Shown: positions 12,421 through 59,680 of the stretch, piece after piece
How positions within the stretch are numbered: the first letter of the stretch is position 1
Layout of the letters: each line of letters opens with the position of its first letter
Origin: a virus
DNA: 64,000 nucleotides
Reading direction: 5' to 3' (one strand)
Virus record (IMG/VR): IMGVR_UViG_3300048032_000927
Location: 32,001-96,000 of that record
Notes under the pieces: model-generated
The model's input: only the letters and a program-made list of their open reading frames with translations
What the model was told of the DNA's origin: nothing
Database searches by the model: none
Position numbers and translations under genes: made by a program

Positions 12421-13195
12421 TTAATCCTAGCATAACCCTTGTTTCTTTCGGCGGAATATCATCCCAAGTTTCAGCGTTTTTAATCGCTTCATTTTGGTAG
12501 ATTCCTTCGATTTTATCTTGCCACCAAACTTTTATATGATTTTTTCTAAATTCTTCAAAAGAATCGCAGTCTAGAACCTCTTTAGCTTTATTTTGTAATA
12601 ATGATGTTGGGCTCAATGGATTGCCTTTTGATTTAGACTTAGGCGCAATAGATTGGGATGAATCAGATTTATCAATTTCATCGTCACCAACAATATGCAC
12701 TTGTAGGAAATTCCTGACACATCTTACAAAAGCTCTATTGCATGCTATTGTTTCAAGGAACTTAGTTGCAAAGCTGCTGGTATTATTTAATGTAGCATTA
12801 GCCATGTCTTGAAAAACAACAGGTTCTCCGAATGTTTCGTAATTTGGTAGGAACTTCATTTGACAAGTTACAGCCACATGATCTTCTTCACATTTTATAA
12901 CATCATAAGATACATCGGAGAACCCTCTTAGTTTGGCTAGTTCTTTAATGCCGCTAAGTTTTATAAGCAGTTGATGATCCGCTAATCCTTCTATTGATCT
13001 AGGAGTGTCTTTACCTCTCATTTGGAACCAGCTTCTATTAGGAAAAAGATGCTCTTCTCCTACCATGGCCCTCCAGTTTATTGATCCATCTTCATTGAAT
13101 TCATATTCAACGTTTTTAAGTAAACCATTCTCATCCCTTACGAAAAGATTGGGGCCAGTTGAATTATCTATTTCAGTCTTTTTTGTCTTCGGCAT
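12410..13195 (-). CDS. Phage protein, possibly single-strand annealing (Rad52/RecT-like)
   Basis: LLIKLSGIKELA..RG and ETIACNRAFVRCVRNFL resemble SSAP core helices; same strand block as ssb. Function is inference. Confidence 0.35.
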   Translation of the reverse strand: MPKTKKTEIDNSTGPNLFVRDENGLLKNVEYEFNEDGSINWRAMVGEEHLFPNRSWFQMRGKDTPRSIEGLADHQLLIKLSGIKELAKLRGFSDVSYDVIKCEEDHVAVTCQMKFLPNYETFGEPVVFQDMANATLNNTSSFATKFLETIACNRAFVRCVRNFLQVHIVGDDEIDKSDSSQSIAPKSKSKGNPLSPTSLLQNKAKEVLDCDSFEEFRKNHIKVWWQDKIEGIYQNEAIKNAETWDDIPPKETRVMLGLISY

Positions 13196-14357
13196 AATTG
13201 TATATGTTTAAGTGTTCTACTTCTTCCCAAAATTCATCTGAATCTATAGCTTTTTGATGGTCTTCTGTTTTTTCTATTCCTGATTTCCATGCTGCTTTGC
13301 TGTAGTATTCTTTATTATTTGAGATCAATGTTTTATTACTATGATAGAACGTATTATCACACAATTCCGAAATAAAGTCAAGATCTTTTTTATTAGGGGT
13401 AGAATACTCTTCGACAACTAAATCAAAGAACTCCATTCTAATATCTGAAATTAGATCTTTATATTTACAAATTAAATTATATTTTAAACCTATTTGTGTT
13501 AAAAAGTCTAGGTAATCTTTTTTGATTGTGCCTTTATCCATGAATATTGTCATTCCTGCAATGTTTTTTCTGTTTTCATAGATAACGTTGGGATCAATTT
13601 TGTCGTCAATCATGAGGTTGACTTTATATTTCATCCAATGCTCAAGAGACTCAGGAAGAAGCTCGTAATCGCATCTGAGATTGATAACGGTTTCAGGCTT
13701 AAAGTCAGCGGCTGGAACAAAGTCAGGCACAACTTCTGTAACTTTATTATTATAATATTTGCCGATGTTTATTGTTTCATAAGAGTCTAGATTAAAATCA
13801 ATATTTAAAACAGACAAAATGTATTTAGCTATATCTTCTGGCGCAATTTCATTGATTCTTTTAATTGCCTCATTAGGATTAAACGAAGGCTTAATTTCAG
13901 AAAAGTCCGGGGTTAGCTTTATAGACTTGGATTGTTTATTCCAAACTTGCGCCGAACATTCAGGGTAAGAGTTTCCGTATAGAATGATTGAGTTGATATC
14001 AAAAGCGCTTGCGATGTGAGATATAAAAGTGTCTGGGCCAAAGTGCAACTTAGAATTTTTAATTATATATGCCATTTGTTTTAGGCTAACCCCTAATATA
14101 GAGCAGTCAACACATTTCAAAGGTAAATCTTCTGCACCCCCAACCTGTACAACATCAATATTATTTTCTTTTAATTTATGTCTTATAAGTTCAAAAACAA
14201 TAACCCAATGATCATAATTTTTAGATGTAAACTTTTTGTTATCAGTATTGATTGTGATATAATTGTCACTCGGTACAGGATAGAAGTGTTCAGATATAAC
14301 TGGTTGCCCTATTTTTACTCCTAGGCATTTGGCGTATTCTTCGATAGCGTGACTCAT
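13173..14357 (-). CDS. GT9-like glycosyltransferase C-terminal lobe plus unknown domain
   Basis: KNYDHW, VVQVGG, SLKQMAYII..SKLHFGPDTFISHIASA..I.LYG match the GT9 C-lobe pattern. Confidence 0.7.
   Translation of the reverse strand: MSHAIEEYAKCLGVKIGQPVISEHFYPVPSDNYITINTDNKKFTSKNYDHWVIVFELIRHKLKENNIDVVQVGGAEDLPLKCVDCSILGVSLKQMAYIIKNSKLHFGPDTFISHIASAFDINSIILYGNSYPECSAQVWNKQSKSIKLTPDFSEIKPSFNPNEAIKRINEIAPEDIAKYILSVLNIDFNLDSYETINIGKYYNNKVTEVVPDFVPAADFKPETVINLRCDYELLPESLEHWMKYKVNLMIDDKIDPNVIYENRKNIAGMTIFMDKGTIKKDYLDFLTQIGLKYNLICKYKDLISDIRMEFFDLVVEEYSTPNKKDLDFISELCDNTFYHSNKTLISNNKEYYSKAAWKSGIEKTEDHQKAIDSDEFWEEVEHLNIYNYAEDKKD
13353..13381 (-). promoter_or_regulatory. sigma70-type promoter inside a CDS
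   Basis: TTGACT-N17-GATAAT on the minus strand, about 160 nt upstream of the 13195 start. Confidence 0.55.
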
Positions 14358-57866: not shown

Positions 57867-58691
57867 ATGGAAGACATACTGCTTTTATTTAACGAAACCT
57901 TTTTAAAAAAAAACGGTATCATTACCGTTAACTCTACCAAAGATATACCAAATCAAGATTCTATTCTTTTTATTGGCAGTCATAGGTATACTTTTAACCC
58001 CCAAAAGATACTTGAATATTTTGAACCTATATCTAAAAAACCTTTTACTTATTCAATTATTTGCGGCAAAACAGATCGCTGCTTAAGTAAAGATATAGAT
58101 ATACCTGATAACATTAAAAAAATTTATTGCAATAACGTCGACTATTCTCACGATATTATTAAGTTCTTTCCAATGGGTAGGGATTTCAGGGCAAGAGATT
58201 GTTTTCATAAAAATACCGAAAACAGAGATCGAGATATTTTAGTTTATGGTAATTTTTCATTAAATACAAGCTGGATAAGAAAAGCTATTTATTTGTTTAC
58301 AAAAGACAATCCCATGTATACTCTTGAAAATATTGGCTCAAGAGGAACAAGAGGAGAAAAACGTTCTTGGTTTATGCCTAATGATCAATTTTTTAATAGA
58401 TTGCGAAGCAGTAAATTTGTAATGTGTCCGCGAGGAACGGCACCTGATTCTTTCAGGTTTTATGACACTCTTTATTGCGGTGCAATTCCTATTGTCGTTA
58501 AAGACTCGATGTACGATCAATTTGATCACTCAGAGTTACCAATTCTTTTCCTGGATCATCAAAAAGATTATCAAAAAATTAGTGAAGATTTTTTAAATGA
58601 GCAATATAATATATTATCTCAAAAAATAAAACCTTATTATAAAACATTAGATTTCAATCATTGGATAAAAAGAATTAAATTAGAATTATGA
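57867..58691 (+). CDS. Exostosin (GT47)-like glycosyltransferase
   Basis: SKFVMCPRG..PDSFRFYDTLYCGAIPIV. Confidence 0.8.
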   Translation: MEDILLLFNETFLKKNGIITVNSTKDIPNQDSILFIGSHRYTFNPQKILEYFEPISKKPFTYSIICGKTDRCLSKDIDIPDNIKKIYCNNVDYSHDIIKFFPMGRDFRARDCFHKNTENRDRDILVYGNFSLNTSWIRKAIYLFTKDNPMYTLENIGSRGTRGEKRSWFMPNDQFFNRLRSSKFVMCPRGTAPDSFRFYDTLYCGAIPIVVKDSMYDQFDHSELPILFLDHQKDYQKISEDFLNEQYNILSQKIKPYYKTLDFNHWIKRIKLEL

Positions 58692-59680
58692 AAATATTAG
58701 TTGGAGGAGCAGGCGGCTTTATAGCCGGTTATTTAGTTAAAGATTTATTGGCACAAGGGCATGAAGTTATCGCCGCCGACATTAAGCCCGCAGATATGTG
58801 GTATCAGACGTTTGATGGTGCAGAAAATCATGCGGATTGTAATCTGCAAGAAAAAGATCATTGTTACAAATTAAGTGTCGGTGCTGATCGCATCTACAAT
58901 CTTGCCTGCAATATGGGCGGCATGGGGTTTGTTGAAAACAATCAAGCTCTTTGCATGGAGAACGTTCTTATTCAGACTCACATGATGATGGCTGCGAGAG
59001 ACAATGGTGTCAAAGAAGTTTTATATAGCTCAACTGCTTGTGTTTATCCAGCCGCAATTCAATCTGAAATTAAAGACGAATCATCTCAGGCACTTAAAGA
59101 ATCTGATGTATTTCCAGCTAATCCAGATGATGGATATGGTTGGGAAAAATTATTTAGTGAATTGATTACTTATTATTACGGAAAAGATTTTGGTATTGAT
59201 TCACGCACTTGTCGCTACCATAATGTTTATGGGCCATTTGGAACATGGCGTGGTGGTCGTGAAAAAGCTCCTGCTGCAATTTGTCGTAAAGTTATAGAAG
59301 CCAAGATGAGTGGTAAGCACGAAATTGAAATCTGGGGTGATGGCGAACAAACTCGTTCATTTATGTTTATTAATGACTGCTTGACCGGTATGGATTTAAT
59401 GTGGGAAAAAGGTGACTCTCGCCCACTCAACCTTGGAAGTGATCGTATGGTTTCTATCAATCAGCTTGTTGATATTGTAGAAAATATCGGCGGCATTAAA
59501 TTAAAAAGAAACTACAATTTAGATGCACCTCAAGGTGTCCGTGGTCGCAATAGCGACAACACTATGATCAAAGAGGTTTTAGGTTGGGCTCCTTCTATTA
59601 CACTAGAAGATGGACTTGAAAAAACATATGAGTGGATTTACAATCAAATGCAGAATTGCAAAGATTCTGATGGATATTAA
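58688..59680 (+). CDS. GDP-mannose 3,5-epimerase-like
   Basis: GAGGFIA, NLACNMGGMGF, STACVYP, YGWEK, GGREKAPAA, PQGVRGRNSDNT. Confidence 0.9.
   Translation: MKILVGGAGGFIAGYLVKDLLAQGHEVIAADIKPADMWYQTFDGAENHADCNLQEKDHCYKLSVGADRIYNLACNMGGMGFVENNQALCMENVLIQTHMMMAARDNGVKEVLYSSTACVYPAAIQSEIKDESSQALKESDVFPANPDDGYGWEKLFSELITYYYGKDFGIDSRTCRYHNVYGPFGTWRGGREKAPAAICRKVIEAKMSGKHEIEIWGDGEQTRSFMFINDCLTGMDLMWEKGDSRPLNLGSDRMVSINQLVDIVENIGGIKLKRNYNLDAPQGVRGRNSDNTMIKEVLGWAPSITLEDGLEKTYEWIYNQMQNCKDSDGY

Follow-up and report, generated by a model that had tools for sequence, protein, structure and literature searches.

Autonomous viral glycosylation and large clusters of glycan genes in lytic marine phages are both already known. 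Chlorovirus glycosyltransferases (GTs) are soluble, early-expressed enzymes that glycosylate the capsid protein outside the endoplasmic reticulum and Golgi apparatus on a conserved core glycan (PMC5408694), and the fibril gene clusters of the Megavirinae hold 6-33 glycogenes, with SAT/APS-kinase sulfate metabolism in some clades hinting at sulfated sugars (PMC9614988). Among phages, mycobacteriophages are summarised as decorating capsid and tail-tube subunits in the cytoplasm with GTs of their own, the glycan serving as a surface shield (Freeman et al. 2023, as summarised in PMC12619734), and the lytic Prochlorococcus cyanomyovirus P-SSM2 carries 24 'LPS genes' (LPS, lipopolysaccharide) that have been proposed to alter the host surface (PMC1079782). 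Here we analyse a 64,000-nucleotide stretch of viral DNA (the window), bases 32001-96000 of the 115,245-bp linear IMG/VR virus record IMGVR_UViG_3300048032_000927, and the glycan genes found at its positions 13173-59680, which are located between the tail module and the replication module of a tailed phage. As judged from profile and fold matches, the phage owns the transferases for cytoplasmic assembly and decoration of a complex heteroglycan and is without means of its own for lipid-carrier priming or polymer export; our leading hypothesis, held tentatively, is that the acceptor of this glycan is a phage protein of the virion surface.

Comparison with described systems

With the chlorovirus PBCV-1 the phage shares virus-encoded GMD, GMER and UGD, GTs without signal peptide or transmembrane (TM) segment, and a conserved core with strain-specific decorations (PMC5408694), the last of these seen here at the gene level only; in addition, the GT8-like fold of one of its core enzymes matches the capsid-glycan transferase A064R (2p6w). 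PBCV-1 is, however, a giant algal virus with 6-8 GTs whose Vp54 glycans have been chemically solved, whereas the present tailed phage of a prokaryote, with a glycan predicted from its genes, encodes ~22-25 GTs, 4-9 sulfotransferases and a GDP-mannose 3,5-epimerase (GME). Clustered, clade-variable glycogenes accompanied by methyltransferases are likewise a feature of the Megavirinae (mimivirus, moumouvirus, cotonvirus and tupanvirus), whose sugars are bacillosamine, N-acetylquinovosamine (QuiNAc) and N-acetylrhamnosamine (RhaNAc) rather than the fucose, L-galactose and possibly uronic acids predicted here. Giant viruses carry sulfate-activating genes, whereas in the phage it is sulfotransferases, several of them, that are encoded, and host domain and virion architecture differ as well.

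Mycobacteriophages, in the account given by PMC12619734, have 2-4 GTs near their structural genes and glycosylated C-terminal extensions, whereas here ~40 genes are found a long way from the capsid gene; the mycobacteriophage-type layout, with GTs adjoining capsid or tail-tube genes and Ser/Thr-rich extensions, was not found, and no ORF (open reading frame) contains such an extension. One likeness to P-SSM2 is that the viral proteins closest in fold to the 283-amino-acid (aa) GT8-like core protein are GT-A proteins of cyanophages. The present lineage differs in having lambda-like tail genes (tail L, K-like and J-like), a giant tape-measure protein and a DnaE polymerase, and its glycan system is about twice the size of the P-SSM2 set, with a conserved core, multiple sulfotransferases and GME. 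Bacterial Wzx/Wzy- or ABC-dependent polysaccharide loci resemble the locus in their clustering of nucleotide-sugar enzymes, soluble GTs and decorating sulfo-, methyl- and acetyltransferases, all of which are present here, and in the variability of their cassettes; they differ in that the priming phosphoglycosyltransferase, flippase or ABC transporter, polymerase and OPX are all missing here and in that this locus lies inside a phage genome. New in the present case is the scale: ~40 genes with a conserved core, GME and several sulfotransferases per genome, in a lineage whose tail genes are lambda-like. In literature searches neither this lineage nor any phage with multiple sulfotransferases was found described; the moraphage paper, considered as a possible description, concerns another, contractile-tailed lineage.

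Conserved core and variable cassettes in a tailed phage lineage

The ~40 glycan-related ORFs occupy 32 kb, or 28% of the contig. Head genes and a 4098-aa tape-measure-like ORF lie upstream of the window, tail genes occupy its left flank, and RecA-like, DnaB, primase, PD-(D/E)XK, exonuclease, DnaE-type polymerase and ClpB-like genes follow downstream, an arrangement of head and tail genes on one side and a replication module on the other that identifies a tailed phage. No cultured close relatives were found by 25-kb megablast and capsid-protein tblastn against 50,697 phage records, and the DnaE matches are just 28-31% identical. Within IMG/VR, the capsid gene was found in 363 contigs and the core sulfotransferase in 17, and records of the lineage also come from Tara, the North Sea and the Pacific.

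Key to our interpretation is a six-gene core (39079-43847) adjoining the ribonucleotide reductase genes, which encodes a fucosyltransferase-like protein, an inverting GT-A enzyme, a GT8-like GT-A enzyme, a sulfotransferase, a 266-aa P-loop protein and a NodZ-like protein. Retained throughout the sub-lineage, it was found in every one of the 16-17 independent loci, at 63-99% identity. Between the present phage (G000) and relative G003 the core is 92-99% identical, compared with 90% for DnaE and 85% for NrdA, and GMD and GME are conserved to a similar degree as the core. Searched against 185,579 species genomes, the core genes have close relatives solely in mis-binned phage contigs. Other parts of the locus behave as exchangeable cassettes: the six GT genes at 19911-24518, the acetyltransferase, GT34 and GT32 are without ortholog in relatives G003 and G001, which have other cassettes instead. 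A Pfam tally of the 105 ORFs in the glycan regions of these two genomes gave 16 Sulfotransfer_2 proteins, together with pyruvyl transferases, CMP-sugar synthetases, HpcH aldolases and MptE/Maf-like enzymes. Across the lineage, 30-45 kb is given over to glycan synthesis, with 2-9 sulfotransferases per genome; in a distant complete relative (65% capsid identity) the GT8-like core gene and GME are absent and two sulfotransferases are present.

Absence of priming and export functions

As the contig is incomplete (CheckV completeness 82%), relatives were examined for export functions as well, giving five genomes: the present contig and four related records of 213.8, 194.5, 150.8 and 121.3 kb, rated 90-100% complete. 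Priming phosphoglycosyltransferases of the Bac_transf and WecA/MraY types (PF02397, PF00953) were detected in 0/5 genomes, as were Wzx, Wzy and OPX (PF01943, PF04932, PF02563), with positive controls working in both searches, and the ABC ATPase profile PF00005 produced none above cut-off in the five genomes, only sub-threshold P-loop matches. The original prediction had claimed for the window that it holds neither an exporter nor a priming gene; the rest of the contig and the four relatives are negative too, so that the lack of export machinery applies to the lineage and not to the window only.

The prediction had also noted the absence of TM anchors. In Kyte-Doolittle hydropathy profiles (19-residue segments, threshold 1.6) no glycan ORF reaches the threshold, with the sole exception of a 640-aa GT4-like ORF that has one hydrophobic segment at residues 533-553, so the claim holds for every glycan ORF but this one. 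The present phage, G001 and G003 each encode one multi-TM protein longer than ~140 aa, plus small holin-like proteins; this lone multi-TM ORF (387-401 aa) belongs to the replication module, is 80-98% conserved, and no protein of these three genomes has more than 5 TM segments. Its representative here, a 401-aa ORF outside the window (L004:4231-5433; 68231-69436 in window coordinates), has ~5-7 TM segments and a 220-aa loop. Considered as a flippase, it is not recognisable as such, being blank in Pfam and falling into unannotated virus-only clusters. Finally, seroconversion by temperate phages involves integral-membrane GtrA, GtrB, Gtr(type) and Oac; no multi-TM glycan proteins of this kind were found, and the Phage_integrase profile is without match in all five genomes, which argues against lysogenic seroconversion.

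The acceptor of the glycan

From soluble enzymes and a missing exporter, the original prediction had reasoned to a cytoplasmic acceptor. This argument does not discriminate, since bacteria assemble O-antigen and capsule with GTs that likewise are cytoplasmic, lack TM segments and act on undecaprenyl-linked intermediates. We nevertheless favour a virion-surface phage protein as the acceptor, with a probability of about 0.45, on the basis of the missing integrase, the conservation of the core and the virus-specific nature of its genes, the fold likenesses to A064R, giant-virus and cyanophage proteins, the Maf-like enzymes of relatives, and three studied precedents. That the core is more conserved than DnaE and NrdA fits a conserved acceptor and not hypervariable host glycans, and the MptE/Maf-like and CMP-sugar synthetase genes of relatives resemble a flagellin-type kit for cytoplasmic protein glycosylation. 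In the proposed scheme, the conserved core enzymes would build an inner fucose-containing, sulfated oligosaccharide, to which the variable cassettes would add strain-specific outer sugars and sulfate, methyl and acetyl groups. A phage protein destined for the virion surface, in the capsid decoration, the tail or the fibres, would receive the glycan in the cytoplasm of the host before particles assemble or while they do so; chloroviruses, mimiviruses and mycobacteriophages provide the model. The host would supply GDP-mannose, UDP-glucose and 3'-phosphoadenosine-5'-phosphosulfate (PAPS), possibly with help from an APS-kinase-like fusion protein encoded by relatives.

Several observations weigh against a virion acceptor, beginning with the solubility of the enzymes, which cannot tell acceptors apart. 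No initiating protein GT of the OGT, NGT, TibC or PglL type was recognised among the glycan ORFs, and no Ser/Thr-rich mucin-like stretch occurs in any ORF. GT genes come no closer than ~43 kb to the candidate capsid gene (1420-2526 of the genome), the core lies ~69 kb downstream of it, and the glycan genes are grouped with replication and nucleotide-metabolism genes, away from the head genes. Timing offers no argument, since a GTGTA motif heads structural, glycan, ribonucleotide reductase, replication and ClpB genes alike, and the contig itself is only 82% complete. Sulfotransferases in candidate hosts, described below, count on the same side. Among the virion genes, an 854-aa fibre-like ORF (9856-12420), which follows the J-like protein and has no homolog in G003 or G001, is likely a host-range fibre. 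It contains 40 [ST]G dipeptides where 13.6 are expected, an excess that is not evidence of glycosylation, as such repeats are common in fibres.

A serious rival, somewhat less probable than a virion acceptor, is that the glycan is destined for the host surface. Under such remodelling or mimicry the phage enzymes would modify undecaprenyl-linked intermediates of the host, whose own priming transferase, flippase, polymerase or ligase would export the glycan to capsule, O-antigen or Bacteroidota O-glycan; this could block superinfection or alter aggregation or grazing of the infected cell. P-SSM2, and the reasoning put forward for that lytic phage (PMC1079782), provide the precedent, and missing exporters are to be expected if the host provides them, bacterial polysaccharide GTs being TM-less; yet Wzx/Wzy are usually selective for their own repeat units, which makes ~40 foreign enzymes a demanding scheme, and no integrase was found in the five genomes. 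The cassettes vary in the manner of O-antigen diversification, and the glycan genes sit within the metabolic and replication part of the genome, but the core outconserves the replication genes, whereas host surface glycans are hypervariable, and the core genes have no close relatives in the species genomes save in the mis-binned contigs. Sulfotransfer_2 occurs in 40/151 genomes of one bacterial family, compared with 0/14 model genomes; the family was taken from a Flavobacteriaceae-labelled bin that holds near-identical phage contigs. Pelagibacter likewise possesses hypervariable surface-glycan islands with GTs, epimerases, GMD and sulfotransferases (bioRxiv 10.64898/2026.04.03.716430). Marine hosts therefore plausibly bear sulfated surface glycans to rewrite or imitate, but the phage sulfotransferases are just 23-37% identical to the sampled Flavobacteriaceae ones.

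The remaining alternatives have less in their favour. It is unlikely that the glycan stays free or is anchored elsewhere (examples would be a sulfated polysaccharide in the cytoplasm or set free at lysis, a glycolipid, or a glycoside of a small molecule), acting after lysis as a decoy or as a matrix in which virions are trapped or protected. No acceptor-specific enzyme was identified among the glycan ORFs, the nearest folds to that of the 309-aa core GT-A enzyme are those of K4 chondroitin polymerase and heparosan synthase, which are processive glycosaminoglycan synthases, and chloroviruses also produce free hyaluronan and chitin (PMC5408694); the known viral hyaluronan and chitin synthases are, however, multi-TM proteins, of which there are none here, and more than 20 different GTs suggest a defined hetero-oligosaccharide over a simple polymer. 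Very improbable, too, is glycosylation of phage DNA against restriction, whether T4-like or as a hypermodified-base glycan. Two GT-B genes (13173-16276) do share a minus-strand operon with the gene for a single-stranded DNA-binding protein (SSB), and few-sugar phage DNA glycans are on record (Pyle et al. 2024, as cited in PMC12619734); but the hydroxymethylase of the thymidylate-synthase family (PF00303) was found in 0/5 genomes, other base-modification routes not having been searched exhaustively, sulfotransferases, fucosyltransferases, GT47, GT61, GT77 and GT90 are without DNA precedent and implausible for DNA, and at least 20 GTs go far beyond any known DNA glycan. An assembly artefact, in which a cellular capsule locus was fused to phage DNA, was raised because the contig is metagenomic; no point in its support was found, and it is hardly credible. 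The order tail-glycan-ribonucleotide reductase-glycan-replication is collinear in three full genomes and is seen in G001, G003 and G005:C4, which come from different samples. The core is present in 16-17 independent contigs, genes for SSB, ribonucleotide reductase, NUDIX and a GHKL ATPase are interleaved with the glycan genes, and the GC content at third codon positions is alike in glycan genes (0.288) and in the remaining genes (0.298). GC content is 30-39% throughout, and a compositional break is absent. The chimera envisaged as a danger by the original prediction can be set aside, as the locus is syntenic in at least 16 independent contigs.

Returning to a virion-surface acceptor, a more specific picture, which we regard as doubtful, is that the particles of this abundant, uncultured marine lineage are coated with a virus-made sulfated fucose/L-galactose glycan, conserved in its inner core and strain-variable outside, similar to the sulfated fucans of algae or to sulfated surface glycans of the host, and the first sulfated glycan made wholly by phage enzymes. 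On account of that similarity it could lure the polysaccharide-binding surface proteins of marine bacteria that degrade polysaccharides, or else shield the particles from sticking, enzymes and grazers. Virus-encoded glycosylation has been chemically solved only for giant eukaryotic viruses and, on a small scale, for mycobacteriophages. If the glycan is virion-borne, marine phage particles can carry complex sulfated carbohydrate coats, with consequences for adsorption, for how sticky the particles are, for where viral carbon and sulfur end up and for immune-like recognition; if it goes to the host surface, no larger case of envelope rewriting by a lytic phage would be known. The six-gene core offers a small, defined gene set for testing, and the question of the cyanophage 'LPS genes' can be approached likewise.

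Predicted enzymes of the locus

All ORFs of at least 100 aa (65 proteins) were scanned with Pfam, with ~0.1 false matches expected; the features are collected in Table 1.

Table 1. Features of the window and their predicted products (window coordinates; E, E value; bits, bit score; SDR, short-chain dehydrogenase/reductase; SAM, S-adenosylmethionine)
Feature	Position	Strand	Evidence and remarks
Tail L (lambda-like)	2933-3964		left flank
JAB/NlpC tail-K-like gene	3786-4676		left flank
J-like protein, 1750 aa			left flank; Phage-tail_3 and weak C-type lectin match
GT-B, 394 aa, GT9 (heptosyltransferase family) C-terminal half	13173..14357	-	PF01075 E 2.1e-6, 27.7 bits (cut-off 22)
GT4/GT1-like with DUF4214-like segment, 640 aa	14354..16276	-	PF00534 E 1.9e-4, PF13946 E 2.8e-4, both just below cut-off
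GT4 (Glycos_transf_1), variable cassette	19911..20783	+	PF00534 E 1.3e-6; ortholog absent from G003/G001
GT2, variable cassette	20756..21463	+	PF00535 E 9.9e-18; not in G003/G001
GT47 exostosin-like	21456..22172	+	PF03016 E 4.6e-13; paralog of 22937 and 57867
NodZ/FUT8-like (GT23) fucosyltransferase	22162..22950	+	PF05830 E 4.6e-11, PF19745 E 1.9e-7
RXYLT1_C/GT47-like	22937..23794	+	PF24785 E 1.3e-6, 28.4 bits (cut-off 27)
GT2-like, weak	23838..24518	+	PF00535 E 1.7e-4, 22.0 bits (cut-off 23.3)
SDR, nucleotide-sugar 4-epimerase/UXS-like	24518..25513	+	PF01370 E 1.3e-42; best PDB match UDP-hexose 4-epimerase 4zrm, E 9e-48
Methyltransf_24 SAM methyltransferase	25495..26130	+	PF13578 E 2.5e-9
GT8-like candidate, 235 aa	26121..26828	+	inferred from motifs only: DxD 'FIDADAILF', 'NSGVQ', 'HYWYNFKPW'; Pfam blank
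GDP-mannose 4,6-dehydratase (GMD)	26834..27865	+	PF16363 E 1.9e-103, TIGR01472 E 9.2e-95; 96-97% identical in relatives
GDP-L-fucose synthase (Fcl/GMER)	27862..28806	+	NF047922 E 7.5e-129
SDR, UDP-sugar 4-epimerase/UXS-like, adjoins UGD	29115..30026	+	PF01370 E 6.3e-60; PDB 4zrm, 6wjb; UDP-glucuronic acid 4-epimerase 6zl6 E 3e-39
Short UGD-like nucleotide-sugar dehydrogenase, 276 aa	30023..30853	+	PF00984 E 6e-25, PF03721 E 2.8e-19
Fucosyltransferase-superfamily lead, 213 aa, first core gene	39079..39720	+	ESM Atlas nearest NodZ, FUT8, O-FucT clusters (0.94-0.95)
Inverting GT-A, 309 aa, core	39717..40646	+	predicted model pLDDT 92.8; Pfam blank; invariant D114-x-D116
Retaining GT-A (GT8-like), 283 aa, core	40643..41494	+	predicted model pLDDT 89; Pfam blank; invariant D94-L-D96
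Sulfotransfer_2, core	41487..42173	+	PF03567 E 4.9e-15; HIPKSGGT, RNPFDRVVS
Candidate P-loop sulfotransferase, 266 aa, core	42163..42963	+	invariant 'GQERAGTTS', R127/S136
NodZ-like fucosyltransferase, core	42960..43847	+	PF05830 E 2.7e-14; 63-99% identical in relatives
Sulfotransfer_2	43848..44492	+	PF03567 E 6.5e-16; HIPKAAGTS, RNPYNRFVS
GT11/fucosyltransferase-like, weak	44495..45271	+	PF01531 E 4.6e-4, below cut-off; 'HLRGYD' fits HxRxxD fucosyltransferase motif
Sulfotransfer_2	45268..45900	+	PF03567 E 6.3e-15; HTPKCAGTS
Hexapeptide O-acetyltransferase (CatB/Vat type)	45912..46427	+	PF00132 E 8e-9; NF000490 E 3e-48, below equivalog cut-off; not in relatives
GT25	46411..47055	+	PF01755 E 2.2e-7
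GT34 (GMA12/MNN10 family)	47052..47687	+	PF05637 E 2.8e-17; not in G003/G001
GT77 (Nucleotid_trans)	47648..48430	+	PF03407 E 1.3e-16; 81-89% identical in 11 loci
Methyltransf_24 SAM methyltransferase	48894..49517	+	PF13578 E 9.1e-14
GT90 (CAP10/POGLUT-like)	51284..52228	+	PF05686 E 1.3e-23
GT-A-like candidate, 221 aa	52241..52906	+	inferred from motifs only: 'LIILTTAIDR' N-terminus, acidic 'WLEDDWD'; Pfam blank
GT2 with Glyco_transf_7C segment	52890..53630	+	PF00535 E 9.4e-22, PF02709 E 8e-10
GT31-like, weak	53652..54308	+	PF01762 E 1.3e-4, 22.2 bits (cut-off 23)
GT32 (Caps_synth/Gly_transf_sug)	54305..55108	+	PF05704 E 1.9e-32; not in G003/G001
GT61	55114..55923	+	PF04577 E 4e-14
GT25-like, weak	55925..56692	+	PF01755 E 1.7e-3, below cut-off
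Sulfotransfer_2	56689..57276	+	PF03567 E 3.8e-15; HIPKCAGSS, RNPYDRIVS
Methyltransf_24 SAM methyltransferase	57280..57858	+	PF13578 E 2.2e-15
GT47 exostosin-like	57867..58691	+	PF03016 E 1e-9
GDP-mannose 3,5-epimerase (GME)	58688..59680	+	plant GME structures 8sg0 (E 4.8e-94), 2c59 (E 1.5e-92)

Pfam recognises 20 GT-like ORFs, 15 of which exceed the curated cut-offs (GT9, GT4, two GT2, two GT47, RXYLT1/GT47-like, two NodZ/GT23, GT25, GT34, GT77, GT90, GT32 and GT61) and five of which narrowly miss them at E 1e-4 to 2e-3 (GT1-like with DUF4214, GT2, GT11, GT31 and GT25). With two enzymes assigned by predicted fold the firm total is 22, rising to as many as 25 if the motif and Atlas leads are added; both GT-A and GT-B types are represented, with inverting as well as retaining enzymes. 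The genes lie where the original prediction, made from the bare sequence, had placed them, and it was essentially right in its count of about 42 genes and its list of families; the 13 GT families it named were all recovered, but GT31 is weak, GT8 is recognised by fold only, and its figure of about 26 GTs is higher than ours. Its three to four methyltransferases and an O-acetyltransferase correspond to three Methyltransf_24 proteins and one CatB/Vat-type enzyme by Pfam/NCBIfam, and its six nucleotide-sugar enzymes to GMD, Fcl, GME, two epimerase-like SDRs and the short UGD-like protein. Four of its five sulfotransferases were borne out by profile and PAPS-binding motifs (PKxxGT/S in 4/4, RNPxxRxxS in three and RNPWDLMVS in one), whereas the fifth, the 266-aa core ORF, stays a candidate: hhalign against the in-lineage sulfotransferase family covers only 20 columns, the P-loop, and a PDB profile search was empty.

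For the steps said to lead through GMD and Fcl to GDP-L-fucose and through GME to GDP-L-galactose, profile and PDB matches are strong for all three enzymes, and from host GDP-mannose the phage is predicted to be able to produce GDP-fucose together with GDP-L-galactose or GDP-L-gulose. GME is 83-98% identical in eight relatives. The claim that UGD makes uronic acids is, by contrast, insecure, as the UGD-like protein (276 aa) is missing its C-terminal UDP-binding domain and a portion of the N-domain, matching TIGR03026 (E 2.7e-50) over profile positions 73-296 of 413 only. This short form is 87-95% conserved in relatives and so is not a sequencing truncation.

Among the core proteins that are blank in Pfam, the 213-aa ORF at 39079 has no NCBIfam match either and is found in all 17 loci. 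The 309-aa GT-A protein (81-99% identical in 17 loci) matches K4 chondroitin polymerase (E 8e-9), heparosan synthase and B4GalT7 in Foldseek; the 283-aa protein matches WbbM, PBCV-1 A064R, LgtC, XXYLT1 and LARGE1, and its viral fold look-alikes occur in cyanophages and giant viruses, including mimivirus R699. Outside the core, the 394-aa GT9-like ORF is 60-62% identical in G003 and G001 and the 640-aa GT4-like ORF 66-68% conserved; the GT9 C-terminal-half match begins the 394-aa ORF, and the two ORFs overlap by 4 nt here and lie ~387 nt apart in G003 and G001. The 394-aa ORF was considered as a TibC/AAH-type protein heptosyltransferase, but phmmer against PDB gave noise only.

Relatives (G001, G002, G003 and G005:C4) encode a protein of 268-284 aa in which the P-loop half of an APS-kinase-like enzyme (PDB APS kinases, E 7e-6) is joined to an NMNAT-like nucleotidyltransferase (E 1.6e-3); it is found at L107:9796-10599 in G003, in a region missing from the present contig. 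Its APS_kinase Pfam match covers the P-loop half only, and its neighbours are genes of nucleotide metabolism, namely dUTPase, Ndt-like, UvdE and C5 DNA methylase genes. The combination of kinase and adenylyltransferase shares the domain logic of PAPS synthase, which is suggestive of a role in PAPS supply. Adjoining it in relatives is a 426-aa DUF1501 protein (E 2.5e-111; L107:8443-9720 of G003), a family that we take to belong to the alkaline-phosphatase/sulfatase superfamily; it may be a sulfatase-like enzyme in a glycan-sulfating phage.

Neighbouring genes, expression signals and host hints

Interleaved with the glycan genes are genes for SSB, NrdA, NrdB, NUDIX, a 920-aa FG-GAP/Kelch protein, a J-domain-like ORF and a GHKL ATPase; no tRNA genes were detected in the searched sequence. 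The 920-aa FG-GAP/Kelch-repeat protein (35535-38297) lies between the ribonucleotide reductase genes and the glycan core and has several S-G/T-G dipeptides N-terminally; its first 244 aa match fibre-region ORFs that follow ClpB in relatives, which points to a probable mobile gene for a fibre or decoration protein. Immediately upstream of the core, a 177-aa ORF (38330-38863) has a J-domain-like HPD motif (YRKIAIETHPDKG), is kept at 53-67% in relatives and has no Pfam match at E<0.01. Mid-way in the glycan block stands a 590-aa GHKL-type ATPase (HATPase_c_3; 49522-51294) that is 69-82% conserved.

The motif GTGTA[AT] is found 13-17 nt before the starts of structural, glycan, ribonucleotide reductase, fibre and replication genes (e.g. 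at 29101, 30959, 33860, 35519, 48881 and 55099). Of its 76 genomic copies, 15 are intergenic and no more than 50 nt from a start codon. Shine-Dalgarno use is low, at 14-18% compared with a background of 7-8%, and together these features suggest a single phage-wide promoter type with near-leaderless mRNAs. Co-expression of glycan with virion genes through the motif was considered and rejected, as the motif is common to other gene classes too.

Low Shine-Dalgarno use, a GC content of 34-36%, the bins described below and the sampling sites, which going by IMG sample identifiers presumably include North Sea bloom samples, give weak hints of a host among the Flavobacteriaceae. Near-identical contigs are binned in metagenome-assembled genomes (MAGs) titled Flavobacteriaceae (two bins), Cellvibrionales and Proteobacteria. 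The presence of lineage contigs in these MAGs is bin contamination able to mislead host calls; in the 'Cellvibrionales' MAG, contig JAYQMT010000004.1 (G005:C4; 210,818 bp) is a whole genome of the phage lineage, complete with capsid gene, core and GMD.

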